Assembly (NCBI GenBank): GCA_964608725.1
Contig: CAZSPB010000001.1
Span: 43,696 to 107,695 of the forward strand
Origin: an uncultured archaeon
Lineage (GTDB): Archaea; Aenigmatarchaeota; Aenigmatarchaeia; Aenigmatarchaeales; Aenigmatarchaeaceae
Reading direction: 5' to 3'
Length of the DNA stretch: 64,000 nucleotides
Positions 5,301 through 40,737 of the stretch are shown piece after piece. A model generated the notes under the pieces. It was not told the DNA's origin. It saw nothing but the letters and a program-made list of their open reading frames with translations, and ran no database searches. The translations under genes and the position numbers were made by a program. The stretch's first letter is position 1. Every line of letters begins with the position of its first letter.

Positions 5301-6973
5301 AGGAATTGCTTAAAGAATGGAGAATTTGGCTAGTTATAGTTAGCTTAATAATTGCAATTTACTTGATATCGCCTTTTCCTCAAAAAGGAGTTATAGTCAC
5401 TTACATCTCAGAAGATTCTCCATTTAAGAACAAAATAGAAATTGGGGAAACCATAACATGGGCAAATGAAAAAGAAATAAGCTCTCCTGAAGATTTTTAT
5501 TCTTTTGAAAATTATACTGGAACTTTTAGGTTCATTCATTCTGGAAAATTAGATTTAGTTAATATAGAAAAGCCTGGGCTTGGAATTATTGTAAAAAAGA
5601 AGCCTTTTTCCAATTTGCAGTTTGGTTTAGATTTAGTTGGAGGAACAAGAGTTTTACTAAAACCAAAGGGAAATGTTAGTGATGCCACTATACAACAAGC
5701 TATAGCAACCTTAGAAACTAGAATAAATATATTTGGCTTAAAAGAAGCAACTTTCCAACCTGTAAAAGATGTTGCTGGGAATAGATACATTCAAATAGAG
5801 ATGGCTGGAGGAACAAAAGAAGAGGTTAAAAGTTTGTTGGCAAAACAAGGGAAATTCGAAGGAAAAATTTTGAGAACTATAATTTTCAAGAATAAAACTG
5901 GAAGTATAAAGTTGATGAATAATCATTTAATAGAACTTCTTGATCATGAAATAAAAATAAATGGAACTGTGTTAAAAGAGAATGAAACTTCAAAGCTTGA
6001 AGGGGTTGATTTTCAAGTTTTAAACTTAACTCAAGAAAATGTAACTTTAGCTTTTACAGTTTTTACTGGAAGAGATATTCAATCAGTATGTTTACAAGAT
6101 CAGCCAGGAATTTGTGTTTCAAGAACTATAAGGCAAATGGGAGGGTGGCAATTCAACTTCCAAGTTTTCATATCCCAAGAAGGAGCTGAAAAATTTGCAA
6201 AAGTTACGAATGGGATGGAAGTTATAACTGATCCAAGAACAGGAGAAAAGTACTTAGATGGAAAAATTTCTTTATATCTAGATGAAAAGTTGATAACAGA
6301 ACTTAACATAGCTTCAGAGTTAAAAGGCCAAGCCTATACAACTCCTGCTATAACAGGTTTTAGAAAAACTAGGAGTGAAGCTATAAAAGAGCAATTAATG
6401 CTAAAAAGTATTTTGCAATCAGGAGCTTTACCAACAACTGTTGAAATAGTAAGAATTGATGAAATTTCTCCAGCTTTAGGAAGAGAGTTTTTTGAATCAG
6501 CAATACTTTCAACTTTCATTGCTTTAGTCGCAGTTGCTTGTGTGATTTACTTTAGATATAGAAACTTTAAGATATTATTGCCAAACATCCTTTGGAGTTT
6601 AATAGAGTTGATATTAACTTTAGGTGGTGCCGCTTTGATAAAATGGACTTTAGATTTATCTTCTATAGCAGGAATAATAGCTGGGATAGGAAGTGGAACT
6701 AATGATCAAATTATGATAATAGATGAAATATTAGCTGGTGGTGCAAAAGAAGAAGAAAGATTTTACACTTTAAAACAAAGGATAAAGAGGGCATTTTTCA
6801 TTATATTTGGTTCAGCTGCAACTGTAGCAGCATCAGTTGTTCCTATGATGTTTATTGGAATAGGAGCTATGAAAGGTTTCGCAGTTACCACTCTTCTTGG
6901 AATATTCATTGGTGTTTTCATCACAAGGCCTGCTTTCAGCATAATTGCTGAAAGGATATTAAAGAAGAGCTAA
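5297..6973 (+). CDS. secD: Protein-export membrane protein, SecD-like
   Basis: 558 aa. GLDLVGGTRVLLKP motif, a large periplasmic domain, and six C-terminal TM helices of RND-like topology. Confidence 0.7.
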   Translation: MKELLKEWRIWLVIVSLIIAIYLISPFPQKGVIVTYISEDSPFKNKIEIGETITWANEKEISSPEDFYSFENYTGTFRFIHSGKLDLVNIEKPGLGIIVKKKPFSNLQFGLDLVGGTRVLLKPKGNVSDATIQQAIATLETRINIFGLKEATFQPVKDVAGNRYIQIEMAGGTKEEVKSLLAKQGKFEGKILRTIIFKNKTGSIKLMNNHLIELLDHEIKINGTVLKENETSKLEGVDFQVLNLTQENVTLAFTVFTGRDIQSVCLQDQPGICVSRTIRQMGGWQFNFQVFISQEGAEKFAKVTNGMEVITDPRTGEKYLDGKISLYLDEKLITELNIASELKGQAYTTPAITGFRKTRSEAIKEQLMLKSILQSGALPTTVEIVRIDEISPALGREFFESAILSTFIALVAVACVIYFRYRNFKILLPNILWSLIELILTLGGAALIKWTLDLSSIAGIIAGIGSGTNDQIMIIDEILAGGAKEEERFYTLKQRIKRAFFIIFGSAATVAASVVPMMFIGIGAMKGFAVTTLLGIFIGVFITRPAFSIIAERILKKS

Positions 6974-7025
6974 CCACTCCTAGAAGTTAAATAGAATTTT
7001 CAAGTTTTTTTTACTTTCTTAAATT

Positions 7026-8220
7026 ATGCTTCTCATAATATTTTCAATTTTCATTGGAATTTTAATTGGAATAGTTGCTGGAATACTTCCTGGCCTTCAC
7101 CCAAATAATACTATTCCAATGATATTAAGTTTATCTTTTCTTTTTGGGCCTTTACCTACTGCAATAATTTTAGTAACTTCTGGAATTGTTAATTGTTTCA
7201 TTAATTTCATACCTTCAATTTTACTAGGGGCTCCAGAGGATTCTTCTGTATTGGGAGTTTTACCTGGCCATAAGTTATTGTTAGAAGGAAGAGGATATGA
7301 AGCTGTTAAGTTATGTGTTATTGGAAGTTTTTATGGAATTATTTTTTCTGTGTTAACTTTACCATTTTTTATAATTTTCATTCCATTTTTATACAAAACT
7401 ATAAGGCCTTATATTCATTGGTTGCTAATTATTGTAATAGGATATTTAATTTTGAATGAAAAGAAGAAAGGGATTGCAACCTTTGTTTTCATAATTTCAG
7501 GAATTTTAGGTTTCATTGTATTGAACAATTTTTCAGATTCTGCTCTCTTTCCTCTTCTTACAGGTTTGTTTGGCTTACCTATCCTTCTCGTTTCAATTTT
7601 TCAAAAAAACAAAACTTCCTGAAAAATTTGTTTTTAATGAAATCAAGTTAGAAAGGAAAAAAGTTTTCTCTTGTGTTAGCATTGGAGCTTTAGCAGGAAT
7701 AGTAGCTGGTTTATTACCTGGAATAGGAGCAACTCAATCAACTATATTAACTCAAAACGTTTTTGGAAAAAATAAAGATGAGAGAAGTTTTTTAATATCA
7801 ATTGGTGCAATAACGACTTCAGACATAGTATACTCTATTCTTGCCCTTTTCTTAATAGGAAACCCAAGGTCTGGAATAGCTGTTGGAATATCTAAGTTAT
7901 TAGATGTTAAGCTAATTGAAACTATGATTTTTATTTCAACTATAATTTTATCATCTGGAATAAGTGTTTACTTAACTCTTAAGCTAACAAAAATTTCTCT
8001 AAGTTTTTTGAAAAAATTAAATTACAGAAAACTATGTTTTTCAATCATAATTTTCCTTTTAGTTTTAACTTTCATTTTTTCTGGTTTTGAAGGGATTTTT
8101 ATTCTCACTGTTGCAGTGGCAATAGGTTTAATACCAAATGTCGTTGGTATAAGAAGAAGTTATGGAATGGGTTGTTTAATTATTCCAACTTTGATCTTTT
8201 TCTTTAACTTCTATGGTTGA
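7026..8220 (+). pseudogene. TctA-family (DUF112) membrane transporter, interrupted by a frameshift at an A7 homopolymer
   Basis: Two ORFs (7026..7622 in frame 0, 7570..8220 in frame +1) overlap by 53 nt. Each carries one copy of the duplicated G-L-L-P-G motif (GILPGLHP / GLLPGIGATQ) typical of the two halves of TctA. The overlap contains caaaaaaacaaaac (A7) at about 7596-7602. Confidence 0.5.
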
Positions 8221-10847
8221 AACTCAACCCTTTTACCTAAAGAGCCATTAAATGAGAAATAAAGTGGCCCGGAACACTTAGGGCATTTACCACTTAAAGT
8301 TGGTCTCCTAAAGCTCCAATTACAATTAAAGCAAACAACATTATCAAAATCGCTTAAAACAGTTTCTTCTGGTGATTTTGGTTTCTCCTTTTTCAAAATA
8401 TCTAACAAACTTTTCTGTCTAACACCTTCTAATAATTCAGAAGCAGAAATGCCACAAACTTCAAATATCCTTTCGAGGGGAGGAAGAAGCTGATTGTAAA
8501 TGTAATATTCAGAATCAATTGGTAAACCCCTTTCTTTTACGAATTCAGGATCTTCTGCTCTCTTTGATAAGAGTTGATTACCTTTTATTATAACGTAACC
8601 TAACCTTTCTCCAACTACTGACCTAGTTTTATCTCTTTTCAAAATTTTTTTTGCAAGCTCAACATGAGGTTGAACGCCTTCATACTTATCTAAAGACTTT
8701 GTTATACCTTTAACTATAGTTAGTTTTTCTATCGGTATTCTTCCTTTTGCAAGGTCTTCTATCACTTTTCTCACATATTTCGAAGCTTTCGTAATATTCT
8801 TTTCTTTTAAGATTATTTCAAGAACATTTCCCAAAGTTTCTGATACTAAATCACACCAATCTCTTCTTACAGTTTCTATACCTTTCATCTCTATTTTATC
8901 AACCCACTTATCCCTTTCCCTTTCAAATGCCCAACCAGCATACCTCTTCTTAGCTTCTATCAAGAAAGTTTTGTAAATTTTTTCGAATTTTAAATTAAGA
9001 CCTGGAAGTCTTTCTGAAATGAATTTTGATACTTTTCTCCCAAATTTTTCAGCTTCATCAAGATCTCTTATATCAACTTTAAGAAAAACAGAATCAGTAT
9101 CTGCATACAAAACTTTAACTGGAAAGTTTTCTTCTATAAGTTTTTTTGTTTTTGTTATAGTTTCTCTACCAAAAGCTGTTATCGAGTTTGCAATTTCTAT
9201 AACATACAATCTTGATCTTATGTAACCTGTGTAACCATACAAAGAATTTAAAAGGTCTTTTAAAGCTAATTGTTTTGCATTCAACAACCTTTTCTTCTCA
9301 GGGTCTGTCTCAAGTTTTAGTTGTTTTTTTATAGCTATTCTTGCTGACAAAATTTCATCCACAACTTGAGGTAAAATTCCTTTAAAAACTTCAGGTTTAA
9401 CGAACTTCGTACCAAAAGGAGAAACTATATGTTCTACATCTTCTCCATTTTTTAATAAAGTTGTTGTACAAATGTTGTAAGCCCTTATTAAAGAAGGATA
9501 CATACTAGTAAAATCCAAAACAACTACCCACTCATGCAAACCTATTTCAGGTTCTAAAACTATAGCTCCTTTTAAAGTTCTACCTTTTAATCTACTCTTT
9601 ATATCTCTTGGCTTACAAGGCATTAAGAAATTTCTTTTGTGAAATTCATGTAAAAGTCTACACTCATGTCTTTGAGCTTGACCACCAAAACAGTCTTGTA
9701 AAAGTAACCCAGAAAGCTTTGAAAGCTCAAAAAATTTATCTAGCAAACGTTTCTCTATAACTAATCTCAAAACTAAAATAGCATCTCTTTTAGCATAATC
9801 AACTAATAGTTGCATATCTTTTCCATTCCATATTTCTCTTATTTTTTGTAAGTAATTTTTACCCAACTCTATTTTTCCTATCCCTAAAACTTCTTTTGAG
9901 ATTGTACTCAAATCATACCTTTTAAACTTTACCCAAGGATCTCTCCTAAATATTTCAAAAGTATCAACAACAATTCTTCCAGAAATACTTGGAATGTAGC
10001 TATGTTCTAATTTTCTAGCAATAGAATTTTTCTCTGATCTTCCAAGATCTCTTGGAATTTTATATTTTTCGAAACGTTTTAAAAGAAATGGTAAATCAAA
10101 ACCATTAATGTTATGGCCACAAATTACATCAGGATCGAAATCAATTAAGATCTCTTTAAATTTTTTTAACATTTCTTCCTCGCCAGAACAAGTTATGGCC
10201 CCATTTGCTTTTCCTGATTTTGCAAGTAAAACTAAAGATTTCCTACCTTTATATTCAGGGTGAAAAGCTAAACTTATAACAATGATTTTATCTTTTTCTG
10301 GTGTTGGTATTCTCTCTTCTTCAGTCAAGCATTCTATATCAAGAGATAAGTATTTAAAAGGTGCGTTTTTCTCTAATTCAATTGGCCTTATTTCTTCTGC
10401 TTTAATTGCCTTACATTTTACTGTGTTAGTTGATATGAATTTTCCTTTTACATCTATCCAACTCATCCCTTTCAAGTTATGATCTGCCATAAATCTATAC
10501 TTAAAAAGAATGTCTGCTTCATAAGGAATTCCAAAATTTTTTGCAAAATCTCTTATTTCAGGTATCTTTCCTGGATCATTACCTGTTATTTTCAAGACTT
10601 TAACTGGAGGCTGAAAACCTATTGGCAATTTTCTCTCAACAACTTCAAATTTTAGCTCTGGATACCTATTTTTCAAAGCTTTAATAGCGTCTTCATAATT
10701 CTCTTCTTTAGAATATAAGTAAAAGTAAGGAAGAAAACCTTCGTAAAAAACGCATATAACTTCACCTTTAATGTTTTTACAAAAAATTCTTATAATTGGT
10801 TTTTTGTTAAGCATTATGTAATCGCAATCAAGAATTTGGAGTTCCAT
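8211..10847 (-). CDS. polB: Family B DNA polymerase (PolB) with 3'-5' exonuclease domain and C-terminal zinc finger
   Basis: Motif C YADTDSVF, exonuclease-region motifs (LSLDIE, FDPDVI...GHN), KxY-type motif, and a C-terminal CFNC...CPKC. Length is 878 aa. Confidence 0.9.
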   Translation of the reverse strand: MELQILDCDYIMLNKKPIIRIFCKNIKGEVICVFYEGFLPYFYLYSKEENYEDAIKALKNRYPELKFEVVERKLPIGFQPPVKVLKITGNDPGKIPEIRDFAKNFGIPYEADILFKYRFMADHNLKGMSWIDVKGKFISTNTVKCKAIKAEEIRPIELEKNAPFKYLSLDIECLTEEERIPTPEKDKIIVISLAFHPEYKGRKSLVLLAKSGKANGAITCSGEEEMLKKFKEILIDFDPDVICGHNINGFDLPFLLKRFEKYKIPRDLGRSEKNSIARKLEHSYIPSISGRIVVDTFEIFRRDPWVKFKRYDLSTISKEVLGIGKIELGKNYLQKIREIWNGKDMQLLVDYAKRDAILVLRLVIEKRLLDKFFELSKLSGLLLQDCFGGQAQRHECRLLHEFHKRNFLMPCKPRDIKSRLKGRTLKGAIVLEPEIGLHEWVVVLDFTSMYPSLIRAYNICTTTLLKNGEDVEHIVSPFGTKFVKPEVFKGILPQVVDEILSARIAIKKQLKLETDPEKKRLLNAKQLALKDLLNSLYGYTGYIRSRLYVIEIANSITAFGRETITKTKKLIEENFPVKVLYADTDSVFLKVDIRDLDEAEKFGRKVSKFISERLPGLNLKFEKIYKTFLIEAKKRYAGWAFERERDKWVDKIEMKGIETVRRDWCDLVSETLGNVLEIILKEKNITKASKYVRKVIEDLAKGRIPIEKLTIVKGITKSLDKYEGVQPHVELAKKILKRDKTRSVVGERLGYVIIKGNQLLSKRAEDPEFVKERGLPIDSEYYIYNQLLPPLERIFEVCGISASELLEGVRQKSLLDILKKEKPKSPEETVLSDFDNVVCFNCNWSFRRPTLSGKCPKCSGPLYFSFNGSLGKRVEFQP

Positions 10848-10896: not shown

Positions 10897-11793
10897 TTAA
10901 ATTGGAGTAATATCTCTTGTTTTCAGATTTATTATGTTATTTGGTAAGACTATAGTTACTCCTTTATAATTTTTTATTTCTCCTTTATTTGTGAAGAGAA
11001 TATCAGGTATAGGATCAATTAAAAAATCTGTTTTCTTCAAATTTACAAACCTCTTTTTTAGCAGTTCTGAGCCATCTAAATCAGGTGCTATCAAAATAAT
11101 TATATTCTCTATCTTTAGAAAGGCTGGTGTTTTCACTTTAATTTTCTTATTCTTTAAGTTATCAAAAACTTTATCAAAAAACACTTTATAGTGTGCTTCA
11201 CACTCTTTTTCATCTTTCAAGAATGCAACTAAAATTTTGTCTTTTGTGTGACTTGCGGTCCTTAATGGAATATCAGGATAAAAAATTTTGTTAGCTATTA
11301 ATTTCTCAGAATAAAAACCAGAAACAGCTATAACATCATCTAGCTCAAGTTTTTTCCAATCCTCTTCTTTAACTAAAATATCAATATCTCCTGTTGGATC
11401 CTCTAAAGTTATGAGAAACTCATTATCTTTTTCTTTCTTCTCTTTAACAAAACCAATCACACTTATTTTCCCTTTACTTCTCTTGTTTATCGAAATAACA
11501 TTCGTCAACTCAAGTTTTTTTAAAAGAATATTTTGAAGAAAATTGTACCTTTCGTTTAATTGTTTAACATACTCTTGAATTGAAAAACTTTTTCTTGGTT
11601 CAAATTCTTTTAAAATCTCAACTTCACTACTTAATATTTTTTTGATAATATCTTTAGAAAGAATAAAGGTTTGAGTTTTTTTAAGTTCTTCTAAAAGTTT
11701 CTTAATTTTTTCTTCATTAAGTTCTTTAATTATTTCAACTGCATCTTCTTTTATTAAGAAACCTTGGTTCAAAAGTTCTTTTAAAAAATTCAT
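10897..11793 (-). CDS. DP1-like protein (PolD small-subunit N-terminal domain plus OB fold) lacking the phosphodiesterase domain
   Basis: N-terminus MNFLKELLNQGFLIKEDAVEIIKEL resembles DP1 N-terminal domains. The OB-fold segment VIGFVKEKK...LITLEDPTGDIDILV...VIAVSG...YPDIPL matches the DP1 OB fold and the PDIP junction. Only about 110 aa follow, with no HxD/GNHE metallophosphatase motifs. The position between orc1 and a polymerase gene is where DP1 sits in many Euryarchaeota. Confidence 0.45.
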   Translation of the reverse strand: MNFLKELLNQGFLIKEDAVEIIKELNEEKIKKLLEELKKTQTFILSKDIIKKILSSEVEILKEFEPRKSFSIQEYVKQLNERYNFLQNILLKKLELTNVISINKRSKGKISVIGFVKEKKEKDNEFLITLEDPTGDIDILVKEEDWKKLELDDVIAVSGFYSEKLIANKIFYPDIPLRTASHTKDKILVAFLKDEKECEAHYKVFFDKVFDNLKNKKIKVKTPAFLKIENIIILIAPDLDGSELLKKRFVNLKKTDFLIDPIPDILFTNKGEIKNYKGVTIVLPNNIINLKTRDITPI

Positions 11794-11824: not shown

Positions 11825-13030
11825 TTAAGAATAAAATATTTGCTCAAGAAGTTTTTTCAACTTCCTAAAAATAGTTTTTGATAGGTTTATACTAACTACC
11901 CTTGTTCTTCCATATCTTCCTTTTGAAACTATTTTAGCATTTATTATCCCAAAAAGATCAAGTTCACTTATAAGATCTGAAATCCTTCTTTGAGTTAATA
12001 CTTTAAGGCCTTGTTCTTTACATATTTCTTGGTAACAATCAAAAATGTCTCCTGTTTGTATTTCTTTGTTCTTTTCAGCAAGCCTTAATATAGCATAAAG
12101 TACAGCTTGGCTTTGTTTTGGTTGTGTTTTGACTGTTTCAATTATCCTATCTAAATCTATTTTTTCATGGGCCATATCTACATGAGCAACTCTAACTTTG
12201 TCTTCTCCATTTCTTTCTGCTAATTCTCCAGCTACTCTCAAGAGATCCAAAGCTCTTCTCGCATCCCCATGCTCTTGAGCTGCAAGAGCTGCACATTTTT
12301 CTATAACCCCCTCTTCTAAAACACCCGGCTCAAAAGCTATTTTTGCCCTTTCCCTTAAAATATCTTGAAGTTGTAAAGCATTGTATGGGGGAAAAATTAG
12401 TTCTTCTTCACTGAGCGAACTTTTTATCCTTGGATCTAAAGTTTCAATAAAGCTTAAATTGTTTGTTATTCCTATTAAAGAAACTCTAGAATTATGAAGC
12501 TCTTGATTCATTCTTGTTAAATTATAGAGTATTTCATCACCTGTTTTATTTATAAGAGCATCTATTTCATCAATAATAATTATAATAATTCCTTTATTCT
12601 CTTCTAATGTTTGAAAGAATGTATTGTATACTTTATCTGTTGGGAGCCCAGTAAATGGAACTTCTCTACCAAGCATCCTAGATAATTCAGCCAATAATCT
12701 ATATTCAGTATCTGCAACCCTTTTCATTTTACAGTTCACATAAAGGGTTTTAACTCTTTGGCCATTACAATTACTTATCTCTTCTAATTGGGATCCAACA
12801 TATCTTGAAACTAAAGTTTTTCCTGTTCCAGGCCTCCCATACAAGAAAATATTGCTTGGCCTTTGCCCTTTCAAAGCAGGTGCTAATATTCTACTAAGAT
12901 CATTTATCTGTCCTTCTCTATGGGGTATTGTTTCTGGAGTAAATGATATTGTTAAAGCATTTCTATTCTTAAATATTGGTTTAGATTCAAGAAATTTCAT
13001 AAAAATGTTATTATTCAATTCCCCTTTCAT
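11825..13030 (-). CDS. cdc6: Orc1/Cdc6 replication initiator
   Basis: Walker A LYGRPGTGKT, Walker B IIIIIDEID, sensor motifs, and a C-terminal winged helix. The likely start is the second Met (MKGELNN..., ATG rc at 13028-13030). The ORF track extends to 13120. Confidence 0.9.
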   Translation of the reverse strand: MKGELNNNIFMKFLESKPIFKNRNALTISFTPETIPHREGQINDLSRILAPALKGQRPSNIFLYGRPGTGKTLVSRYVGSQLEEISNCNGQRVKTLYVNCKMKRVADTEYRLLAELSRMLGREVPFTGLPTDKVYNTFFQTLEENKGIIIIIIDEIDALINKTGDEILYNLTRMNQELHNSRVSLIGITNNLSFIETLDPRIKSSLSEEELIFPPYNALQLQDILRERAKIAFEPGVLEEGVIEKCAALAAQEHGDARRALDLLRVAGELAERNGEDKVRVAHVDMAHEKIDLDRIIETVKTQPKQSQAVLYAILRLAEKNKEIQTGDIFDCYQEICKEQGLKVLTQRRISDLISELDLFGIINAKIVSKGRYGRTRVVSINLSKTIFRKLKKLLEQIFYS

Positions 13031-13103
13031 AGAAAAAACCTCTATTTCTTTTGAAAGTAAATACGTGAAGTTATATATTTTTTTCTTCACGTTAACCCCT
13101 TTA

Positions 13104-13170
13104 TTTCCTGTGAAGTTCATATGAAGTTTTTTCTCAAATCACACCCTATTTTTTCCTGTGAAATCTCCAG
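13104..13170. promoter_or_regulatory. Two direct mini-ORB-like boxes (TTCCTGTGAA) upstream of orc1/cdc6; candidate origin or autoregulatory element
   Basis: tttcctgtgaag at 13104-13115 and ttcctgtgaaatctccag at 13153-13170. They resemble the archaeal mini-ORB core TTCCAGTGGAAA and the TTCACGTGAA iterons at 23.7-24.1 kb. An AT-rich stretch follows (13171-13287). Confidence 0.4.
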
Positions 13171-13287
13171 AAGAAATAAAAATTTGAAAATTTTTTAGAA
13201 CCTTTATTTCTTATAACAATGTTAATATTTATATATAAGAATAATTTTGGAAAAGTAATTACTTGTTCGACAAGAAATTAAGGGGAG

Positions 13288-14064
13288 CTAAAAAGATCTT
13301 TTTAATAATTTTAGAAATTCATTTTTATCTTTTATTTCTGTAATGGCAACTGGTATATTTTCTAATTCTGCTATTCTTTTCGCTAATTCATCAATTTTTT
13401 CAGAACCATGTAAAACAACTAATCCAGGCCTTAAATTTGTCACTTTTATAGCTACCATAGAACTTTTTCCTGTATGGGCTCCTATGAATATTAAGGCCCT
13501 TTTGCTTGTTGCACCATACAACTTTACCATATCCATTGGGGAAAGATCAATTATAGCTTTTAAACTATCAATAACAGTGTAACCATAAAGAGTTTCATCT
13601 GAAAGTTCTTCTTTTACAACAACATTTGCATTTATAATTTTACAAAAATCTGAAATCTTTTTTGGTATACTAAACTCTTTCATATCTAAAATAGCTTCAG
13701 AAAGGGCTGGTTTTGGGGGATAAATTGAAAACTCTTTTATAATTTTTCCACCTCTTTTCTCATCTATGGCTAACATAGCTTCGACAATTTTTCTTATTAT
13801 CTTTATTCCTGGAGATTTTCTTCTCCCATTTTCATAATCAGAAATAACAGAAGGCATTACTCTCATTTCATCAGCAAGTTTTCTTTGTGGTATCTTGAAG
13901 ATGTTTCTCCATTTTTGAATAGTTCTTCCAGCTTCATTACTAAGAACTATTTCACCAGCTATTCTTTTAGCTAACATTTCTCTTGCTAATTCTTGTGTAT
14001 TCATGTTAATATATTGTCGAAAAAAGCTTAAAAAACTTTCATTCTCTTCTAAACCCGAGTACAC
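13288..14064 (-). CDS. HTH (XRE/Cro-C1 type) transcriptional regulator with a C-terminal uncharacterised domain
   Basis: The N-terminal region IQKWRNIFKIPQRKLADEMRVMPSVISDYENGRRKSP matches the HTH_3 pattern. Length is 258 aa. Confidence 0.55.
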   Translation of the reverse strand: MYSGLEENESFLSFFRQYINMNTQELAREMLAKRIAGEIVLSNEAGRTIQKWRNIFKIPQRKLADEMRVMPSVISDYENGRRKSPGIKIIRKIVEAMLAIDEKRGGKIIKEFSIYPPKPALSEAILDMKEFSIPKKISDFCKIINANVVVKEELSDETLYGYTVIDSLKAIIDLSPMDMVKLYGATSKRALIFIGAHTGKSSMVAIKVTNLRPGLVVLHGSEKIDELAKRIAELENIPVAITEIKDKNEFLKLLKRSF

Positions 14065-14680: not shown

Positions 14681-15031
14681 ATGTTTAAAGAAGAGATTGG
14701 AGAATTGTTGGAGTTACTAGATGAGATAAAAGATAAAACAATAATAGTTGAGGGTAAGAGAGATAAAGAAGCTTTATGCTCATTTGGTCTTAAAAATGTA
14801 ATAACTTTACATAAAGGCTTGTACGAAACTGCTGAAAGTTTAAAAAGTAGAGAAGTAGTAATTTTAACTGATTTCGACAGGGAAGGCAAAGGGATAGCAA
14901 AAAAACTTAATAAAATTCTCCAATCTCTTGGTTATAAGGTAGATAAGGAAAGTAGGAGGAAAATAAGCTTCCTATTTTCCAGACTAAGGATCAAAAAAAT
15001 AGAAGAATTGAGAGGTGTTATTCATGAGTAA
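14681..15031 (+). CDS. Small Toprim-domain protein (COG1658-like mini-primase/RNase M5-like)
   Basis: IIVEGKRDKEAL (conserved Glu) and VVILTDFDREGKGIAKKL (DxD). Length is 116 aa. Overlaps dnaG by 17 nt. Confidence 0.65.
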   Translation: MFKEEIGELLELLDEIKDKTIIVEGKRDKEALCSFGLKNVITLHKGLYETAESLKSREVVILTDFDREGKGIAKKLNKILQSLGYKVDKESRRKISFLFSRLRIKKIEELRGVIHE

Positions 15032-16166
15032 GTTGGCCCAAACAACTTCGAAATACACTATTTATGTTAAATTTGAGGCTGATGGTATTGTTGAGAAACC
15101 GGATGTTATAGGAGCTATTTTTGGCCAAACAGAAGGATTGTTAGGCCCTGATATGGAGTTAAGAGAATTACAAAGAACAGGAAGGATAGGAAGAATCGAC
15201 GTTAATTTAAGAACTCATAATGGAAAAACAACAGGAAAAATAATAATACCTTCTTCTCTTGATAGTGCAGAAACATCTTTAATAGCAGCTTGTGTGGAAA
15301 CTATAGAAAGAGTAGGGCCATGCAATGCTAAAATTCAAGTTGAGAGGATAGAAGATGTAAGAGCAAATAAAAGAAAGTATGTTGTTGAAAGAGCAAAAGA
15401 ATTGCTTGGAAAGATGTTTGAAGAAAATTTCTATGATATTGAACAAATAACAGAGCAAATAAAAGAAGCTATAAGAACAAGTGAAATTTCAGAGTATAAA
15501 GGTTTACCAGCAGGCCCAAATGTAGCTAACTATGACTCGATAATTATAGTTGAAGGGAGAGCAGATGTTTTAAACCTTTTGAAAAATGGTATAAAGAATG
15601 TTATTGCGATAGAAGGAACTTCCGTACCAAAGGCTATAATTGATCTCTCAAAAGAGAAAGTAGCAACAGCTTTCCTTGACGGAGATAGGGGAGGAGATTT
15701 AATACTAAAAGAGTTGTTAGAAGTTTGTGATATTGATTTTATAGCAAGAGCTCCTGAAGGGAAGGAAGTTGAAGAGTTAAGTAAGAAAGAGATTTACAAA
15801 TGTTTAAGGAGTAGAGTGCCAACACATCAAGAAACAGAAATAATAAAAGAAGAAAAAACTCACAGAATTCCTATAGAAACTAACAAACTTGATAAATTCA
15901 AAACTTTGTTAGAAGAATTAATAGGAACGAGAGCTGCATGCTTTTTAGATGAGAATATGCAAATCTTAGGCAAAGTTCCAGTTAAAGAGATGTTTTCTGC
16001 AATGAGAGGCCTTAATGCTAATGCTCTATTGTTTGATGGTAACATTGATCAAAAGCTTTTGAATCAATGTTCAGCCAATGGAATAAAATATGTAGTTGGA
16101 ATGAAGATTGATAGGGTAAGAATACCAAAAGGCATTTTTGCTTTAACTATTCAAGATTTGAGATAA
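15015..16166 (+). CDS. dnaG: Archaeal DnaG-type primase (Toprim)
   Basis: IIIVEGRADVLNLLKNG...AIEGT and AFLDGDRGGDLILKEL. The N-terminal region is typical of archaeal DnaG. Length is 383 aa. Confidence 0.8.
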   Translation: MLFMSKLAQTTSKYTIYVKFEADGIVEKPDVIGAIFGQTEGLLGPDMELRELQRTGRIGRIDVNLRTHNGKTTGKIIIPSSLDSAETSLIAACVETIERVGPCNAKIQVERIEDVRANKRKYVVERAKELLGKMFEENFYDIEQITEQIKEAIRTSEISEYKGLPAGPNVANYDSIIIVEGRADVLNLLKNGIKNVIAIEGTSVPKAIIDLSKEKVATAFLDGDRGGDLILKELLEVCDIDFIARAPEGKEVEELSKKEIYKCLRSRVPTHQETEIIKEEKTHRIPIETNKLDKFKTLLEELIGTRAACFLDENMQILGKVPVKEMFSAMRGLNANALLFDGNIDQKLLNQCSANGIKYVVGMKIDRVRIPKGIFALTIQDLR

Positions 16167-18903: not shown

Positions 18904-21015
18904 TTATAGTTTACATGTAGTACAACCACCGCTATAATCAGCTGGAACTTGAATTTCAAAATTGATTAAATCTTTCTTTTCTTTCAAAGACTCCTCTGTT
19001 ACCAAAACTTGTTTCTTTCTACTCCCATCTCTATAAACAGTAACACCTTTACATCCAAGTTTATAAGCAAGCCAATAGGCCTTTTCTATATCTCTCGGTG
19101 TTGCATGATAAGGGAAATTGATAGTTTTACTTACCGCATTATCAACATACTTTTGAAATGCAGCTTGAATTCTAATATGCCATTCAGGTGTTATGTCATG
19201 GGCCGTAACAAAAATTTTTCTAATATTTTCTGGAATTTCCTCTATATGCTGAATAGATGCTTTTTTCGAAACTTTTTTCATCAATTCTTCAGAATAAAAA
19301 CCTTCTTTTATTGCAATGGTTTCAAACAATGGATTAACTTCTACTAGATTGGTTCCAATTGTATCACCAACGTTTCTCACATAAGAAATTGCAAACAATG
19401 GTTCAATTCCACTTGAACAGCCTGCTATAACACCAATTGAACCTGTTGGTGCTATTGTTGTTACAGTAGCATTTCTCATGGCATCATACTTTCCATCCCA
19501 GATACTCCCTTTAAAATTCGGGAAAGAACCTCTTTCTCTTCCAAGCTCAACTGACATTTTTCTAGCTTCTTCAGAAATGAACTTCATTACTTTTTCGGCA
19601 ACTTCTAAAGCTTTTTCAGAATTGTAAGGAATTCTAAGTTTTATGAGCATGTCAGCAAATCCCATCACTCCAAGGCCAATTTTTCTATTCGCTTTTGTCA
19701 TCTTCTCTATTTCTGGTAATGGATACTTGTTAACATCAATAACGTTGTCCAAGAAATGAACAGCACTTCTAACTGTTTTTCTTAATTTCTCCCAATCTAT
19801 TTCACCATCAACTACCATTTTCGAAAGGTTTATTGATCCTAAATTACAGCTTTCATAAGGAAGTAAAGGCTGCTCTCCACATGGATTAGTAGCTTCTATT
19901 TTACCAATATGAGGAGTAGGATTCGATTTATTAATAGTATCTATGAAAACGACACCAGGCTCACCATTTCTCCAAGCCATAGTTACTATCAAGTTCCATA
20001 TTGCCCTTGCTTTTATTTTTTTCACAGGCTTCTTTGTCCTCGGATTTATGAGATCTATATTTTTATCTTTCAAAACAGCATCCATGAATTCATCAGTAAC
20101 AGCAACAGAAATATTAAAATTATTTAGCTCACCTTCTGTTTCTTTTGCAACTATAAAATCTAAAATATCAGGATGATCAACTCTAAGAATACCCATGTTA
20201 GCCCCCCTTCTCTTACCTCCCTGTTTTATTGCATCTGTATTTGCATTAAAAACTTTCATGAAAGATAACGGCCCAGATGCAATACCACCCGTTGACCTTA
20301 CAACATCGCCTGCAGGCCTTAATTTTGAAAAATCAAACCCAGTACCACCACCTGTCTTTTGGACTAAAGCCATAGCCTTTATAGCATCATAAATACTTTC
20401 TATACTATCTTCTACAGGAAGGACAAAGCAAGCGCTTAGTTGTCCTAAATCAGTACCAGCGTTCATAAGAGTTGGAGAATTTGGTAGGAATTCTAAATTC
20501 ACAAGCATGTTGAAGAACTCTTCTTCAGTTCTCTTAACTTCTTCTTCACTTTTTCCATAAAGTTTGTCTGCAGCTGCTATAGCTTTTGCAACCCTTCTAA
20601 ATAATTGTCTTGGAGTTTCAATTATTCTCAGATTTTCATCCCTTCTCAAATACCTGCTTGCTAAGACAATAAGTGTATTTAAAGGCAATTTCAAATCATC
20701 TTCTACTCCAAGTAAAGCTTTTGCTCTCCTAATTTCAGCTCTTTTTTGCCTATAAAGTATGTAAGCTTTTGCAGTTTTTGCATGTCCATTTTCAATCAAA
20801 ACTTTTTCTACAATATCTTGAACTTGTTCTACTGTTGGTATTTCTCCTTCTTTCAATTGCTTTTCTAAATATGAGACAACTTCATCAGCAAGTTTAGCAG
20901 AAAGTTTTTTATCTTTACCACCAACAGACTTTGCGGCTTTCCATATAGCTTCAGTAATTTTATTCTTATCAAAATCTACTATTCTTCCATCCCTCTTTCT
21001 TATTTTTTTAATCAC
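18904..21015 (-). CDS. nrdJ: Class II (adenosylcobalamin-dependent) ribonucleotide reductase with N-terminal ATP-cone
   Basis: ATP-cone at [24 protein letters not shown]. Finger-loop motif [16 protein letters not shown], plus NPCGEQ and C-terminal CTTC redox cysteines. Length is 703 aa. Confidence 0.85.
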
Positions 21016-26489: not shown

Positions 26490-27446
26490 TTATTTCCCTT
26501 TTGGATCTCTTATTCCTTCAGGAGTAATGACAAATACTGTTTCACCTTCTGGTAAAGATGGACTATCTACAACTCTAGCAATTCTTGTATTGCCTCTAGA
26601 CTTTCTTAAATAAAGTCTATGAGTACTAAAGTGACCTAGAATATGACCACCAATTGGTGCTGTTGGATCACCAAATAGTATATCTGGTCTTGCCATAACT
26701 TGGTTTGTAATGTAAACAGCAATGTTATATACATCCGCAAGTCTTTGTAAAGTGTGAAGATGCCTATTGAGTTTTTGTTGTCTTAAAGCTAACTCTCCTC
26801 TACCAGTATAATCTACCCTAAAATTTGAGGTTACACTGTCAACAATCAGAAGTTTAACATTTTTTTCTTTTATTAATTCACTTGCTTTTTCAGCAAGTAT
26901 CATTTGATGGTCAGAATTATAACATCTAGCAACATAGATATTATCTAAAACCTTTTTTGGATCTAAACCTAAAGCTTCGGCCATTTGTTTTATTCGAGAT
27001 GGTCTGAAAGTATTTTCCGCATCTAGGAAAAGGCACCCTCCTTCTAAACCACCTTCTTCTACAGGTAATTGAACATTCACAGCAAGCTGGAAACCAATTT
27101 GTGTTTTTCCAGCACCAAATGCACCATGAAATTCTGTAACAGCAAGAGTTTCTATACCCCCTCCTAATAAACGGTCAAGATTTTCACTTCCAGTTTTAAT
27201 TTTACCAATATTCTTCCTTTTTTCTAATACATCAGTAGCTTTTTCAAAACCTATTTCTAAGGCCTCTCTTGCAGCATTTATTATTTTTGAAGCAGTTGTC
27301 TCACCTATTTCTGCTATACTTGAAAGTTCCATGGGTGATGCAGCAGCAATAGCCATTACATCAATATACCCAGCATTTCTCAGTTTATCTGCTATTTTTT
27401 CTCCTACTCCAGGAAGATCAGATATATCTTTAATTTTCTTACTCAT
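26490..27446 (-). CDS. radA: RadA recombinase
   Basis: N-terminal HhH domain ([12 protein letters not shown]...), Walker [10 protein letters not shown], Walker B LLIVDSV. The start at the second Met avoids overlap with the upstream gene's stop. Confidence 0.9.
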
Positions 27447-27459
27447 AAAATTACCACAC

Positions 27460-28461
27460 TTAAACATTCGGTACCAATTTATTTATTATTTTGTTTATCT
27501 CACTTTTAACATCAACTTCTTTTACTTCACTAACAATGAATTCAGGCCTGTTAAAGAGCTTATTTTTTCTTACTTTACCTTTCATAACAAACTCTTTACC
27601 AAGAATGTCTACTATATCAAAAATTGACTTATCATGCTTTAATGCATTTTCCAAATCCATACCAACTAATTGGAGAGCAACGTCTCTAAAAAATACAGCC
27701 CTCATATTCATTGTACCATCATCAATAACACCAGATATTACCATAGCTTTTTCTGGTTCAACTTCTCCATGTTCTTTACACACAAATTTATTCTCAACTT
27801 TTTCCACTTTTCCTCCACATTTAGGACATATTTCAAAGAAAAGATTTGTTTCAAATATTTGCACTATGGCAGCTCTCACTTCAGCTATATCATTTAACTT
27901 TAATTGAGAAATCTTCTTTCTTACGACTTTTCTTTCCAAAATTCTTTCTATTTCTTCTAAAGAAGGAAGGTCACTTTCTTCTAGTATTTTTATTCCACCT
28001 CTTTCACTAAGTCTTAATTCTACACCACCAATTCCATTATCTCTTGTATAAGCTCCAAAAGTTTCAATGGCCATTCCAGGCTTTAATTTTTCAGCTATTT
28101 CAGTTTGTTCATCCCATAGAGAAAGTCTTATTGTGCCAGTAGAATCTCCCAATATCACACTTGCAACTTTTCCTTTCCCACCTTGTCTTTCAAATTCTTT
28201 TGGTTCAAAAACTTTCAATACTCTTCCACTTAATGTTAAATTTCTTATCCTAGGAACAACATTTTTTATTTCTAACCTTCTTTTTTCTTTAATTTTTGGA
28301 AGAAGATCTAAACCTAACTCTTTTGCAACTATGTAAGCAGCACCTTCCTTTGAAACTAAGTGTGATAACTCTTTTTGTTTTTCTATTATTTTATTTTCAA
28401 TTTCTCTTCTTTCTAAACCTGTCTTTTCTTTGATCTTTTCTATTATCTCTTCTAAGTTCAT
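27460..28461 (-). CDS. RPA-like single-stranded DNA-binding protein (OB fold plus zinc ribbon)
   Basis: OB-fold pattern ([11 protein letters not shown]...[20 protein letters not shown]) and CPKCGGK...CKEHG. Adjacent to and co-directional with radA. Confidence 0.65.
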
Positions 28462-36822: not shown

Positions 36823-38550
36823 ATGGAAAAAATATATGGGGCTATAAAAGATCCTTTATTTCATGAAAGGGTAATACTTGGAGAGGATTTACAAAAAGAA
36901 TTACTTAAAGAATATCTTTCTCTATTTCCAAATATGAAAAGTGCATCTGAATCTTTAGGTCTGAATTTAACAACGTTTTTTGCATATCTTAAATATCAAA
37001 ACAAATCTATCCCTAAAAAAGTTTTTGAAGTTGTAGCCTCTCGATTAGGTATTGAAGACCCATCAAAACTAATAAGAGAAAAAACTACACTTAAAGAAAT
37101 TCGAAGCAAATTTCTTAAAGAATTTTGGAGAAACGATAGAGAACGTGCTTTGAAGGTAGCTAGAAAAGCGGCACCATTGGGGATAAAAAAGCTAGAAAAA
37201 AAGAAAGGTAAAAGTAGGAAAGAGATAATGAAAGAGGTTCGGAGTCATCTTTATAATAAGTATGGACTAGATGCTCACCGTGTAATTGGTAATTTAAGAA
37301 TCGAGAAAGCAAAAAGGGAGTTTGGTAAAAACTGGAAAATGGAAATGATCAAACCTGCAATGGAAAAACTTAAAGAGAAATATGGAGAAAAATATTGGGA
37401 AGTTCTTTTACCTAAAGCTCGAGCTGCCTTAGAGAAAAAATATGGCCCTCTTTGGGCCTTGAGGCTTTCAAGAAGAGGAATGAAGGCTTTAAGAGAAAAA
37501 TTTGGTGAAAATTGGAGAGAAATAACTTTAGAGAGGGCTAGAAAAAAACTCAAAGAAAAATATGGAGAAGATGTTTACCATTTTCTTAGTAAGTTGTCGA
37601 AAGAGACAAGAAAAGTTAAATCCTTTGCTTCAAAAAGAATGGATATGAAGGAAGAAGAAAGGAAGTGTTACAGTTGTGGAAGTACTAACCTTATCAAAGA
37701 TCATGAAACTGGTGAAACTGTTTGTGCTGATTGTGGTTTAGTTCAATATGAAGCTTCACTTGATATGGGTCCAGAATGGAGAGCATTTGATGAAGAACAA
37801 AAGAAGGCTCGCACAAGAGTAGGACCTCCACAATCCCATAGGTACCATGATAAAGGTTTAGGTACTACAATAGGATGGATGGATAAAGATGCGCATGGTA
37901 AATCGTTAAAACCTGAACAAAAGGCTCAAGCATTTAGGCTTAGAAAATGGCAGAAGAGAGCGAGAGTACAAAGTTCAGATGAAAGAAACATAGCTTATGC
38001 TTTAACTTTAATTAATGGAATAGGAGAAAATCTTAATTTACCATCTCAAGTTTTGGATAATGCTTACATAAATTACAAAAAAGCAGTAAAGAGAAAATTG
38101 ATCAGGGGAAGGTCTATTCAGCAGGTAGCTGCTGCAACAGTTTATTTAGCTTGTAGATTGTGTGGTATAAACAGAACTTTGGAAGAAGTTGCTGAAGCAG
38201 CTTCTCTGAAAAAGAAAGATGTTGGAAAGCAGTATAGATTTATTGTGAAAGAATTTGAGTATTGGAATATTCCTCAACAAAAAGCATCAAATTATGTTAG
38301 TAGATTATGTAGTAGTATGGAACAAGAAGAGATATCTTACAAGATTCTTAATGCAGCAAAAAAGGCTAATCTTACTTCCGGCCGTGGCCCTATAGGTATT
38401 GCAGCTGCCGCAACCTATATTGCAGGTGTTTTATGTGGAAAGAAAGTAACTCAAAGAGAAATTGCTGAAAGAGCGGGGGTCACAGAAGTCACAATAAGAA
38501 ATAGGTATAAAGATTTAATGGATGAATTATTATTTGAAATTTCTCTTTAA
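36823..38550 (+). CDS. tfb: Transcription initiation factor TFB with a 272-aa N-terminal extension containing tandem 20-aa repeats
   Basis: The TFB core begins at MDMKEEERKCYSCGS...CADCG (zinc ribbon), followed by the B-finger and two cyclin folds. ATG at 37639 would give a canonical 303-aa TFB. The same frame stays open for another 816 nt upstream, with repeats ([AK]L[KR]EK[YF]GExxW...) of about 60 nt period in 37290-37610. Confidence 0.85.
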   Translation: MEKIYGAIKDPLFHERVILGEDLQKELLKEYLSLFPNMKSASESLGLNLTTFFAYLKYQNKSIPKKVFEVVASRLGIEDPSKLIREKTTLKEIRSKFLKEFWRNDRERALKVARKAAPLGIKKLEKKKGKSRKEIMKEVRSHLYNKYGLDAHRVIGNLRIEKAKREFGKNWKMEMIKPAMEKLKEKYGEKYWEVLLPKARAALEKKYGPLWALRLSRRGMKALREKFGENWREITLERARKKLKEKYGEDVYHFLSKLSKETRKVKSFASKRMDMKEEERKCYSCGSTNLIKDHETGETVCADCGLVQYEASLDMGPEWRAFDEEQKKARTRVGPPQSHRYHDKGLGTTIGWMDKDAHGKSLKPEQKAQAFRLRKWQKRARVQSSDERNIAYALTLINGIGENLNLPSQVLDNAYINYKKAVKRKLIRGRSIQQVAAATVYLACRLCGINRTLEEVAEAASLKKKDVGKQYRFIVKEFEYWNIPQQKASNYVSRLCSSMEQEEISYKILNAAKKANLTSGRGPIGIAAAATYIAGVLCGKKVTQREIAERAGVTEVTIRNRYKDLMDELLFEISL

Positions 38551-38835: not shown

Positions 38836-40737
38836 TTATAATTTATCTATTCCTTTTCCAGCAGCTAAACCAATGTTGGATTTTAAAATTTTATCAAGAA
38901 TTTCCATGTTAAGTTTCTTAAGCTGGCACATATGGCCACCTTTTAAAATTTTATGAAAATCTCCAAGAAATTCAATTTTTTCAATATCAGGCAGATTAAT
39001 ATCAACACCACCAGTATAAAAATCTCTTTTTGAGTTAAATTTCATTTTATCATATTTTGCAAAACCTTGTGAGAGGAGAGAATAGTCGAATTCTGCTAAC
39101 CCTACTCTCAAATTTTTTAGTTTAATATTTTTGTCAATAAATTTAAGAATTTTCAACGCAAGCTTTTTATTTTCAACATAATCACCAGCTATAGTTTCTA
39201 TCAAATCTTTAACACCACAAACTTCAACAATGCTTATTCCATCATCAAAATGACAATATTTATCCCTTCCAACTCTATGATTTAAATAATTTAATTCAGT
39301 AAGAGCTTTTGAGTTTATACTTTCTACTGATGCTACAATACACTTTTTTATTAAATTAAGCCTTTCTAATAGTAATTCATAAATTTTATCTTCATCCTTT
39401 GTTATATAACCTAATCTAGGAAGGTTTAAAGCAACCATTTGCATTTCAACAGTTCCGATTGTTCTTTCCCAACTTTTCCAGTTTGAGTCGAGTCTTGTCC
39501 AATCAAACATGTAGTTTGCATTTTCAGTTTGCCATTTTGGAATGAGGTTAGCAACGTAAATTTGGTCAAAGACTTTTTTGATATTTTCTGGTATATCTTT
39601 TCTGTTTCTAAATTTCAAAATAAATTTTGGGCAAATTGTTTTTCCTTTTTCACTCAAAACACTTAGAAACATTTCTAACAAAGTTCTTGCTTCGGCTTCA
39701 TAATCTTTATAACTCCCAACTTCTTTCCCACCACAATAAGCTGGTTGGTTTTTCAAAAATTTTGGGATGCTAACCTCCAAATTTATATAAACCCTTAAAG
39801 ATTTTGCATTTGTGATAGTGTATAAGTGATCTAAAGAGTAAATTATTCTTTCTGCCATTTGTTTTACTTCATATTTATTCTTCTTCCTTATGTATGGTGC
39901 TAAGAAAATGTTAAAAAAATCAAATGTTTGTTGCAGGTCTGCTAAATTTTCATTTATGGCTTTTATAGCTGTCTCAAAATGCGAAACACAAGAAGTCATA
40001 TTTTTTGGTGGTTCAGCTTTTAGGCCAATTATTTTCAAACCATGCTTTAAGATGAGCGAAAAATTATGCTGAAGGTCTATAGGGTAAGATTTTCCTACAT
40101 TTCTTATATGAATATCTTTTTCTAAATGTGCTCTCACAATTTCTCCCAAATTTTTTTCTCTTAATACATCAAGGAAATTTTTCTTTCTAAATAAAAACTC
40201 AGTTGATTGTAAAGCTTCTCTTAAGCGATATATTTTTCTATTTTCTTCTTCAAGAATTTCGAATAAAATTTTCCTAATTTCTGCAAACGTTATCCCATTA
40301 TAAACTCTCTTTGCTAACACTCTTCTTATTTTTTCAATAAGATCTTTTGGTGTCCCTGCTTCAATTGCAATTCTCTCTATTACATCTATATCAAATTCTT
40401 GCAATTTTCCTTCCCAATCTATTGCCAACAACTTTTTCTTTCTTCCTCTTTCTTTTCTAGAGAATACTTGTGAAATGCCTTCTGGAGAAATATCTAACTT
40501 AAATTTTTCTAAAGTATAGATATTCTTTTTCCTTCCATCTCTTATCTTTCTACATCTTAAAATCCCAGCTTTCTCCATTTGATTTAAGTACTTGAAAGCT
40601 GTTGAGAAACTTATTTTCAATTCATTTCTTATATCAGACAAAGATTTTGAGCCTTCTCTTGCGATTAAATCTACAATTTTTAATTTTATAGGATTATCAA
40701 GAGCAGAAAGTAGTTCTGCAAGCTTTTCAGGTTTCAT
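38836..40737 (-). CDS. Large protein with N-terminal ArsR-like winged helix and an uncharacterised 550-aa domain
   Basis: N-terminal wHTH (LSDIRNELKISFSTAFKYLNQMEKAGILRCRK). An internal ATP-cone-like stretch (IDVIERIAIEAGTPKDLIEKIRRVLAKRV...ITFAEIRKILFEIL). The segment YTGGVDINLP resembles RNR finger-loop motifs. No glycyl-radical or other known catalytic motif was recognised. Confidence 0.5.
   Translation of the reverse strand: MKPEKLAELLSALDNPIKLKIVDLIAREGSKSLSDIRNELKISFSTAFKYLNQMEKAGILRCRKIRDGRKKNIYTLEKFKLDISPEGISQVFSRKERGRKKKLLAIDWEGKLQEFDIDVIERIAIEAGTPKDLIEKIRRVLAKRVYNGITFAEIRKILFEILEEENRKIYRLREALQSTEFLFRKKNFLDVLREKNLGEIVRAHLEKDIHIRNVGKSYPIDLQHNFSLILKHGLKIIGLKAEPPKNMTSCVSHFETAIKAINENLADLQQTFDFFNIFLAPYIRKKNKYEVKQMAERIIYSLDHLYTITNAKSLRVYINLEVSIPKFLKNQPAYCGGKEVGSYKDYEAEARTLLEMFLSVLSEKGKTICPKFILKFRNRKDIPENIKKVFDQIYVANLIPKWQTENANYMFDWTRLDSNWKSWERTIGTVEMQMVALNLPRLGYITKDEDKIYELLLERLNLIKKCIVASVESINSKALTELNYLNHRVGRDKYCHFDDGISIVEVCGVKDLIETIAGDYVENKKLALKILKFIDKNIKLKNLRVGLAEFDYSLLSQGFAKYDKMKFNSKRDFYTGGVDINLPDIEKIEFLGDFHKILKGGHMCQLKKLNMEILDKILKSNIGLAAGKGIDKL

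Follow-up and report, generated by a model that had tools for sequence, protein, structure and literature searches.

What does the small subunit of the archaeal DNA polymerase D (PolD) do once most of its nuclease domain has gone and the gene next to it encodes a family B polymerase (PolB) rather than the large PolD subunit, DP2? The question is raised by positions 10897..11793 of a 64-kb stretch of DNA from an uncultured archaeon (contig CAZSPB010000001.1, positions 43,696 to 107,695), which was analyzed as a whole and is called the window here; its GC content is about 30%. The gene encodes a 298-aa protein from an ATG start, the stop codon being included in the coordinates, and its product is referred to as mini-DP1 after DP1, the small subunit of PolD. 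A first-pass annotation made from the sequence alone had placed this open reading frame (ORF) between orc1/cdc6 (11825..13120) and polB (8211..10847). The position was confirmed, with all three genes on the minus strand, as are all features of the cluster described below, and with spacers of 31 nt to orc1/cdc6 and 49 nt to polB. The gene is defined by its ORF, by the NCBIfam model of DP1, by an AlphaFold2 model and by the Foldseek matches of that model. Mini-DP1 is a homologue of DP1 by sequence and by fold. We consider it very probable that it serves as a non-catalytic B-subunit or adaptor of the adjacent PolB, in which a groove between its OB fold and the stump of its phosphodiesterase (PDE) domain would take a DP2-derived zinc ribbon of PolB, PolB would proofread and the N-terminal domain would link the complex to GINS.

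The homology to DP1 was found with several independent profiles and structures. The NCBIfam model of the PolD small subunit (NF003118) aligned at E=1.7e-26 with residues 2-194 of mini-DP1, which correspond to positions 7-233 of the 481 in the model. DP1 of P. abyssi (6hmf/5ihe) matched residues 71-194 by sequence at E=1.4e-10, and a profile of the family matched full-length DP1 of T. kodakarensis (6knb) at E=1.7e-25. The latter match has two parts, in which profile positions 5-180 fall on residues 3-258 and positions 217-287 on residues 390-493, and it leaves out the middle of the PDE domain. Given these profile and PDB matches, the observation is real and far beyond chance. The AlphaFold2 model of mini-DP1, built with 37 family members, had a mean predicted local distance difference test value (pLDDT) of 92.9 and a predicted template modelling score of 0.86. 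Its best Foldseek match was again DP1 (5ihe, E=8.9e-17, TM score on the query 0.62), followed by the B-subunits of human Pol delta (p50, 6tny_B, E=2.9e-10), Pol epsilon (5vbn_A, E=7.9e-8) and Pol alpha (4y97_C, E=2.2e-6). These three B-subunits had TM scores on the query of 0.50-0.56. Further matches were the yeast Pol31 and Pol zeta B-subunits, and the eukaryotic B-subunits as a group lay between E=3e-10 and 1e-5.

The domain layout follows that of DP1 from the N-terminus onwards. Residues 1-60 (11614..11793) form a helical N-terminal domain of the DP1N type, for which four helices are predicted and the NF003118 alignment starts at residue 2; the family profile aligned with 6knb from residue 3 and with P. 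horikoshii DP1's N-terminal domain (2kxe) at E=0.012. A linker helix and the OB fold occupy residues 61-172 (11278..11613), which align with the OB fold of DP1 in the PDB matches and carry the invariant motifs LEDPTG and LDDVIA. The string YPDIPL at residues 172-177 (11263..11280) marks the junction between the OB fold and the PDE domain and aligns with LPDVPL in DP1 of P. abyssi; all 37 family members share P173 and P176. The DP1-type helical domain, the OB fold and the PDIP-like junction that had been proposed from the sequence are thus all recovered by NF003118, 6knb and 5ihe. Of the profile searches suggested at the time, that with a DP1 model gave the NCBIfam match above, while the Pfam model DNA_pol_E_B (PF04042) gave none. 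The Pfam scan of mini-DP1 detected neither this model nor Metallophos, and its sole match was the OB model tRNA_anti-codon at a sub-threshold E=6.5e-4.

The neighboring gene encodes an 878-aa family B DNA polymerase, putatively Delta-like and of the group B6 type. It matched the Pfam models DNA_pol_B and exo1 at E=3.7e-109 and E=1.6e-36, respectively. Read from the translation, the exonuclease motifs Exo I (DIE), Exo II (NxxxFD) and Exo III (YxxxD) are intact, as are the polymerase motifs A (DFTSMYPS), B (KxxxNSxYG) and C (YADTDS). The best PDB match was human Pol delta's catalytic subunit (E=8.8e-110, 371.5 bits), with Thermococcales PolB at 348 bits, and the translation contains the Delta-like strings DIEC at Exo I and NICTTT after motif A. 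Membership of the Delta-like group B6 is a putative assignment, drawn from the best match and these strings.

At its C-terminus PolB carries a zinc ribbon, CFNCNWSFRRPTLSGKCPKC, at residues 839-858 (8274..8333), which comparison with the NCBIfam model of DP2 and with DP2s of DPANN archaea points to as a homologue of the Zn-III module of DP2, including its RR(P) loop. The match of the PolB C-terminus to the DP2 model NF003103 is weak (positions 1041-1071 of 1125, E=6e-4). Over 29-40 residues, the ribbon is 44-52% identical to Zn-III in seven of eight DPANN DP2s and 39% identical in the eighth. The PolB string CFNCNWSFRRPTLSGKCPKCSGPLYFSFN-GSLGKRVE aligns with CVxCNExxRRPPLxGKCxxCxGKxIFTxxEGxxKYxE of DP2; the two agree exactly in the C-x2-C-x12-C-x2-C spacing and share the Arg-Arg-Pro loop, and 62 residues follow the ribbon in DP2 compared with 20 in PolB. 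Related PolBs share the consensus C-x2-C-x-W-x-FRRP-x-L-x-G-x-CP-x-C-x3-LYFS, and the ribbon is conserved wherever the 3' end of the PolB gene was recovered, which was the case for 15 of 20 syntenic loci. By these alignments, the zinc ribbon is specifically DP2-derived, a point that the first-pass annotation had missed.

Gene order ties the two proteins together across relatives. All 20 genome loci with a family member have the DP1 homologue followed on the same strand by a PolB of this type, and Orc1 lies directly upstream of the DP1 homologue in 14 of the 20 short-form loci. Named homologues and syntenic loci are labelled Candidatus Aenigmatarchaeota in nearly all cases. The orc1/mini-DP1/PolB-ZnIII cluster, typical of Aenigmatarchaeota, also occurs in L011 and L012, which bear the label Nanoarchaeota archaeon, and in L024, which is labelled uncultured bacterium; probably these names lack precision or the bins are mixed. 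At L010, a locus of the Aenigmatarchaeota type, about 2.7 kb (5785-8486) are inserted between the mini-DP1 gene and that of PolB, which are directly adjacent in the other loci.

Loci with canonical DP1 show a related order. Of 60 such loci, which come from Woesearchaeota, Pacearchaeota and others, 59 have Orc1 upstream and 53 have a DP2-sized ORF of 1,045-1,656 aa after DP1; the three of these ORFs checked by Pfam were all DP2. The downstream ORFs of L018, L028, L036, L047, L049 and L051 have 1,602-1,656 aa, about 450-500 aa over the usual 1,150-1,190 or so, which may reflect an intein or other insertion in DP2. As first noticed from the sequence, mini-DP1 is followed by PolB and not by DP2, and no DP2-sized or DP2-like gene was found within the 64-kb window. 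Set against the orc1-DP1-DP2 order of DPANN relatives, the presence of PolB in the DP2 slot indicates that this arrangement turned into orc1-miniDP1-PolB(ZnIII). The order fits an in-situ replacement of dp2 with its 3' end kept. On the likely route, most of dp2 would have given way to a polB core joined to the dp2 3' end, after which the nuclease domain of DP1 would have been eroded stepwise.

How the two proteins would work together can be proposed from PolD and from eukaryotic polymerases. In PolD as resolved by cryo-EM, Zn-III and the RR loop bind an acidic groove at the OB/PDE interface of DP1, a 20-residue Zn-III peptide is enough for nanomolar binding of DP1, and the helices of DP2 contact PDE loops of DP1 (PMC6355029). 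By analogy with Zn-III of DP2 on DP1, and with CysB/Zn-2 of Pol alpha, delta and epsilon on their B-subunits, the PolB ribbon would dock on mini-DP1, in a groove that its OB fold forms with the PDE stump. Proofreading would come from PolB itself, and this supply would make the nuclease of DP1 dispensable. The retained N-terminal domain may tether the polymerase to GINS and the CMG helicase, as the cases of DP1N and Dpb2 suggest; DP1N is reported to bind the C-terminal domain of Gins51 in Thermococcus (PMC9023282). The likeness to inactivated, DP1-derived partners of family B polymerases in eukaryotes, already raised in the first-pass annotation, is supported by the DP1 homology, by the ribbon, by the synteny in 20 of 20 loci and by two earlier studies (PMC7544198, PMC12680538).

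That PolB has kept the Zn-III ribbon of DP2 with its RR loop, whose only known role is docking on DP1 apart from DNA contacts within PolD, argues against the view that mini-DP1 works independently of PolB. Under that view it would be a factor associated with GINS/CMG or with Orc1, or an OB protein binding single-stranded DNA, and its adjacency to polB would be inherited. Some observations do suit it: orc1 next to DP1 is the ancestral order, which loci with canonical DP1 also show, DP1N is a GINS-binding module according to the report cited above (PMC9023282), and OB folds can bind single-stranded DNA, with weak RPA32 OB matches to the family profile. However, ribbon and mini-DP1 co-occur in every locus, and DP1 was found by yeast two-hybrid to bind PolB's C-terminal domain (CTD) within the same phylum (PMC12680538). 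We regard an independent role as improbable.

Several points weigh against mini-DP1 as a B-subunit of PolB. The Pfam B-subunit model PF04042 misses it. The likeness to DP1N is weak when taken alone (E=0.012 to 2kxe), and for this reason the link to GINS is something that we infer. The helical bundle of DP2, which contacts the PDE loops in PolD, is missing from PolB, which implies a smaller interface than that of PolD or of eukaryotes. The absence of DP2 is established for the 64-kb window, out of a contig of 318 kb, and the DP1 of the published yeast two-hybrid experiment may not be of the very short type. As to the interface, the ribbon and the groove-forming core are both kept and the helices and the PDE loops are both lost, which would be consistent with a co-reduction of the two partners.

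The PDE domain of mini-DP1 is reduced to residues 178-298 (10900..11262), a compact, conserved and beta-rich remainder, as seen from the MAFFT alignment with canonical DPANN DP1s and intermediates, the profile, the pLDDT values and the conservation. The alignment shows that the metal-binding motifs I-V (DxH, GD, GNH(D/E), H and GHxH) are all substituted or deleted: the segment with motifs II-III is deleted, the His of motif IV is replaced by Ala and GHxH by TNKG. Two more stretches, one of about 15 residues and one of about 20, are missing as well. From the junction to the C-terminus, mini-DP1 has 126 residues compared with 289 in canonical DP1, a loss of about 160. Retained are the strands beta1 (ILVAFL) and beta2 (HYKVFF) and the C-terminal strands of the domain.

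The first-pass annotation had called the roughly 110 residues past the junction degenerate, which is not the case. Residues 200-298 are predicted at a pLDDT of 92-98 as a beta-rich domain with one helix, and among closer relatives the majority-residue frequency is 0.69 over residues 241-298 compared with 0.67 in the OB region. R248, P263, D264, Y276, K277, G278 and L290 are invariant in the stump. The statement that the PDE domain is lacking therefore holds for motifs I-V but not for the domain, which persists as a conserved stump with recognizable first and C-terminal strands. The absence of metallophosphatase His/Asp motifs was read correctly, as the alignment with canonical DP1 and the lack of a Metallophos match both show.

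The short form is widespread. A word-indexed search returned 74 proteins, about 69 of which have 290-360 aa and are 27-57% identical over their full length. When 1.84 billion representatives were searched exhaustively with a profile, 371 clusters (clustered at 50% identity) matched at E<=1e-30; among the best 150 of these 371, nearly all members have 250-400 aa and align end-to-end on the 300-position profile, with few shorter fragments. Conservation of the short form in relatives, which the first-pass annotation had named as a check, thus extends to hundreds of 50%-identity clusters. No relative of mini-DP1 was found in viral contigs, which gives no support to a currently virus-borne version.

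This conservation, a sign of purifying selection, effectively refutes the second possibility that had been raised from the sequence, a decaying and functionless remnant of PolD left after the loss of DP2. Every catalytic motif has gone, over half of the PDE domain is missing and mini-DP1 evolves faster than its neighbors (42-49% identity compared with 62-77% for PolB and Orc1 at the same loci), as a remnant might. Nevertheless, the ORF stays intact and changes little in length over the hundreds of clusters, invariant residues are spread over its whole length, the stump included, and the fold is predicted at very high confidence. The strict synteny with PolB and the interaction described in the literature also speak against decay, and such a remnant appears very unlikely.

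Members of the family form a graded series in size and in their motifs. DxH is present in eight of the longer members, which have 188-214 residues after the junction, and GHxH in seven of these eight. In the 128 members with 116-160 residues after the junction, GHxH does not occur and a DxH-like string occurs in two. The intact 391-aa protein of L014 (9983-11155, plus strand of that locus) appears to stand between canonical DP1 and the mini form: in place of motifs I-V it has DLH, GN, GEND, H and GHFH, and its gene adjoins that of a B6-type PolB with a zinc ribbon. P0150, P0181, P0186, P0212, P0214, P0216 and P0217 resemble it. L023 (9854-11022) had also been considered as a short intermediate and was rejected; its DP1 gene is broken by a scaffold gap of 10 N, and L014 was used instead.

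The idea that mini-DP1 is still a nuclease or phosphoesterase through a re-wired active site in the reduced domain has next to no standing: relatives of about 370-400 aa (such as L014, P0150 and P0216) do retain DxH and GHxH together with the His of motif IV, and D211 and D264 are conserved acidic residues, but GHxH is gone from all 128 short members and a DxH-like string from all but two, none of the five motif positions holds a His in mini-DP1, the motif II-III segment is lost, and PolB has its own intact Exo I-III.

With mini-DP1 taken as a non-catalytic B-subunit of PolB, we see an even chance that the PDE domain was eroded stepwise, from 289 residues after the junction to about 190-215 and then to 116-160, that this was matched by a cut of the partner CTD to the Zn-III ribbon, and that the two together make up the smallest natural docking module of a polymerase and its B-subunit, reduced further than in eukaryotes.

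The replication cluster of the window extends upstream. Orc1/cdc6 was identified by the NCBIfam ORC1-type model at E=9e-158, and a gene for a 258-aa HTH_3 protein lies beyond it (13288..14064; Pfam HTH_3, E=5e-7). This gene is a conserved cluster member in closer relatives, being found upstream of orc1 in 13 loci (L001-L012 and L045) at 57-73% identity. Its product has an N-terminal HTH_3 domain and an unassigned C-terminal domain of about 150 aa, and the four genes form a cluster of HTH, orc1, mini-DP1 and PolB. The protein perhaps regulates the replication cluster; it may have no functional part in the system. Between orc1 and this gene lies a 167-nt AT-rich spacer (13121-13287), which holds TCTCCAGAAGAAAT, a faintly ORB-like (origin recognition box) string, and a 20-nt imperfect palindrome at 13171-13212. 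The spacer was considered as a replication origin and the idea was dropped: the repeats near orc1 are AT-rich chance repeats, and near-copies of TCTCCAGAAGAAAT are scattered over the window. No repeated ORB set was found in the window, so an origin at the orc1 spacer is unproven.

Divergent from the replication cluster, with a CBS-domain gene in between, are two Toprim genes. One encodes a stand-alone 116-aa Toprim protein (14681-15031, plus strand) and has a 17-nt overlap with the start of the other, a 383-aa Toprim gene of the archaeal DnaG-like type (15015-16166, plus strand). Further along are the large subunit of a ribonucleotide reductase with an ATP-cone (18904-21015, minus strand), an adjacent pair of RadA and an RPA-like OB protein (26490-28461, minus strand), and an NrdD-like anaerobic reductase that carries an ArsR-type HTH at its N-terminus (38836-40737, minus strand). 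An ORF for TFB/TFIIB on the plus strand (36823-38550) has 575 aa, with the zinc ribbon beginning at residue 281; either the protein has an N-terminal extension of about 280 aa or the mechanical start of the ORF is too far upstream.

The pair of mini-DP1 and PolB is almost certainly a member of the system of inactive DP1 and B6 PolB that was described for Aenigmatarchaeota in 2020. Group B6 of PolB was defined in Aenigmarchaeota, with a C-terminal metal-binding motif closest to Zn-III of DP2 (B6-aenigma1) (Kazlauskas et al. 2020 NAR, PMC7544198). Most Aenigmarchaeota were found to be without DP2, an inactive group of DP1 was described, and replacement of DP2 by B6 PolB was proposed (PMC7544198). 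Interaction of an Aenigmatarchaeota DP1 with PolB-DP2CTD was later reported from AlphaFold3 predictions and yeast two-hybrid, and the CTD of Aenigmatarchaeota was called degenerate and shorter (Nat Ecol Evol 2025, PMC12680538). The locus shares with this system, by the names on its homologues, the phylum, and further the inactive DP1, a PolB that looks Delta-like, the single motif like Zn-III of DP2, the lack of DP2 nearby and the proposed role as second subunit, and differs from it in nothing essential. Since the system has already been described and experimentally probed, little here is new in kind. Neither paper speaks of a truncation of DP1 in its main text, and the supplements searched give no lengths or accessions. 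The reduction of the PDE domain to a stump of about 120 residues, the graded size series and the positional replacement of dp2, all absent from both main texts, are modest additions.

Eukaryotic replicative polymerases are chimeras: their catalytic core is of family B, their C-terminal zinc module comes from DP2 and their B-subunit is an inactivated derivative of DP1. The same chimeric combination arose within archaea, in Aenigmatarchaeota, which has a bearing on the assembly of the eukaryotic replisome, as was already argued in 2020 and 2025. The window offers a clean and complete example in its context, with orc1, mini-DP1 and PolB-ZnIII replacing orc1-DP1-DP2. It also shows at residue level that a small part of the PDE domain and of the DP2 CTD seems to suffice, and biochemistry on minimal interfaces could take its lead from this, while no new question is opened by it.

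Compared with canonical DP1 (P. abyssi and T. kodakarensis; 5ihe and 6knb), mini-DP1 has the same DP1N domain, OB fold, PDIP junction, first and last PDE strands and position after orc1. It differs in having no Mre11-like active site, about 160 fewer residues after the junction and PolB rather than DP2 as its partner. With the eukaryotic B-subunits (p70, p50/Pol31 and p59/Dpb2; PF04042), it shares a DP1-derived OB fold and an inactivated PDE domain; these subunits bind the C-terminal zinc module of a family B catalytic subunit and use an N-terminal domain for contacts in the replisome. Their inactive PDE domain is of full size, however, and the CTD of their partner has two metal modules and a helical bundle, whereas mini-DP1 has a stump, its partner a single ribbon, and PF04042 finds no match. 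In Baldrarchaeia (Asgard), PolB3-DP2CTD and DP1 (PMC12680538) likewise combine the absence of DP2 with a retained DP1 and a PolB fused to a DP1-binding, DP2-derived CTD. The baldrarchaeial CTD is full-length and eukaryote-like, in contrast to that of Aenigmatarchaeota, which was described as shorter and degenerate (PMC12680538).

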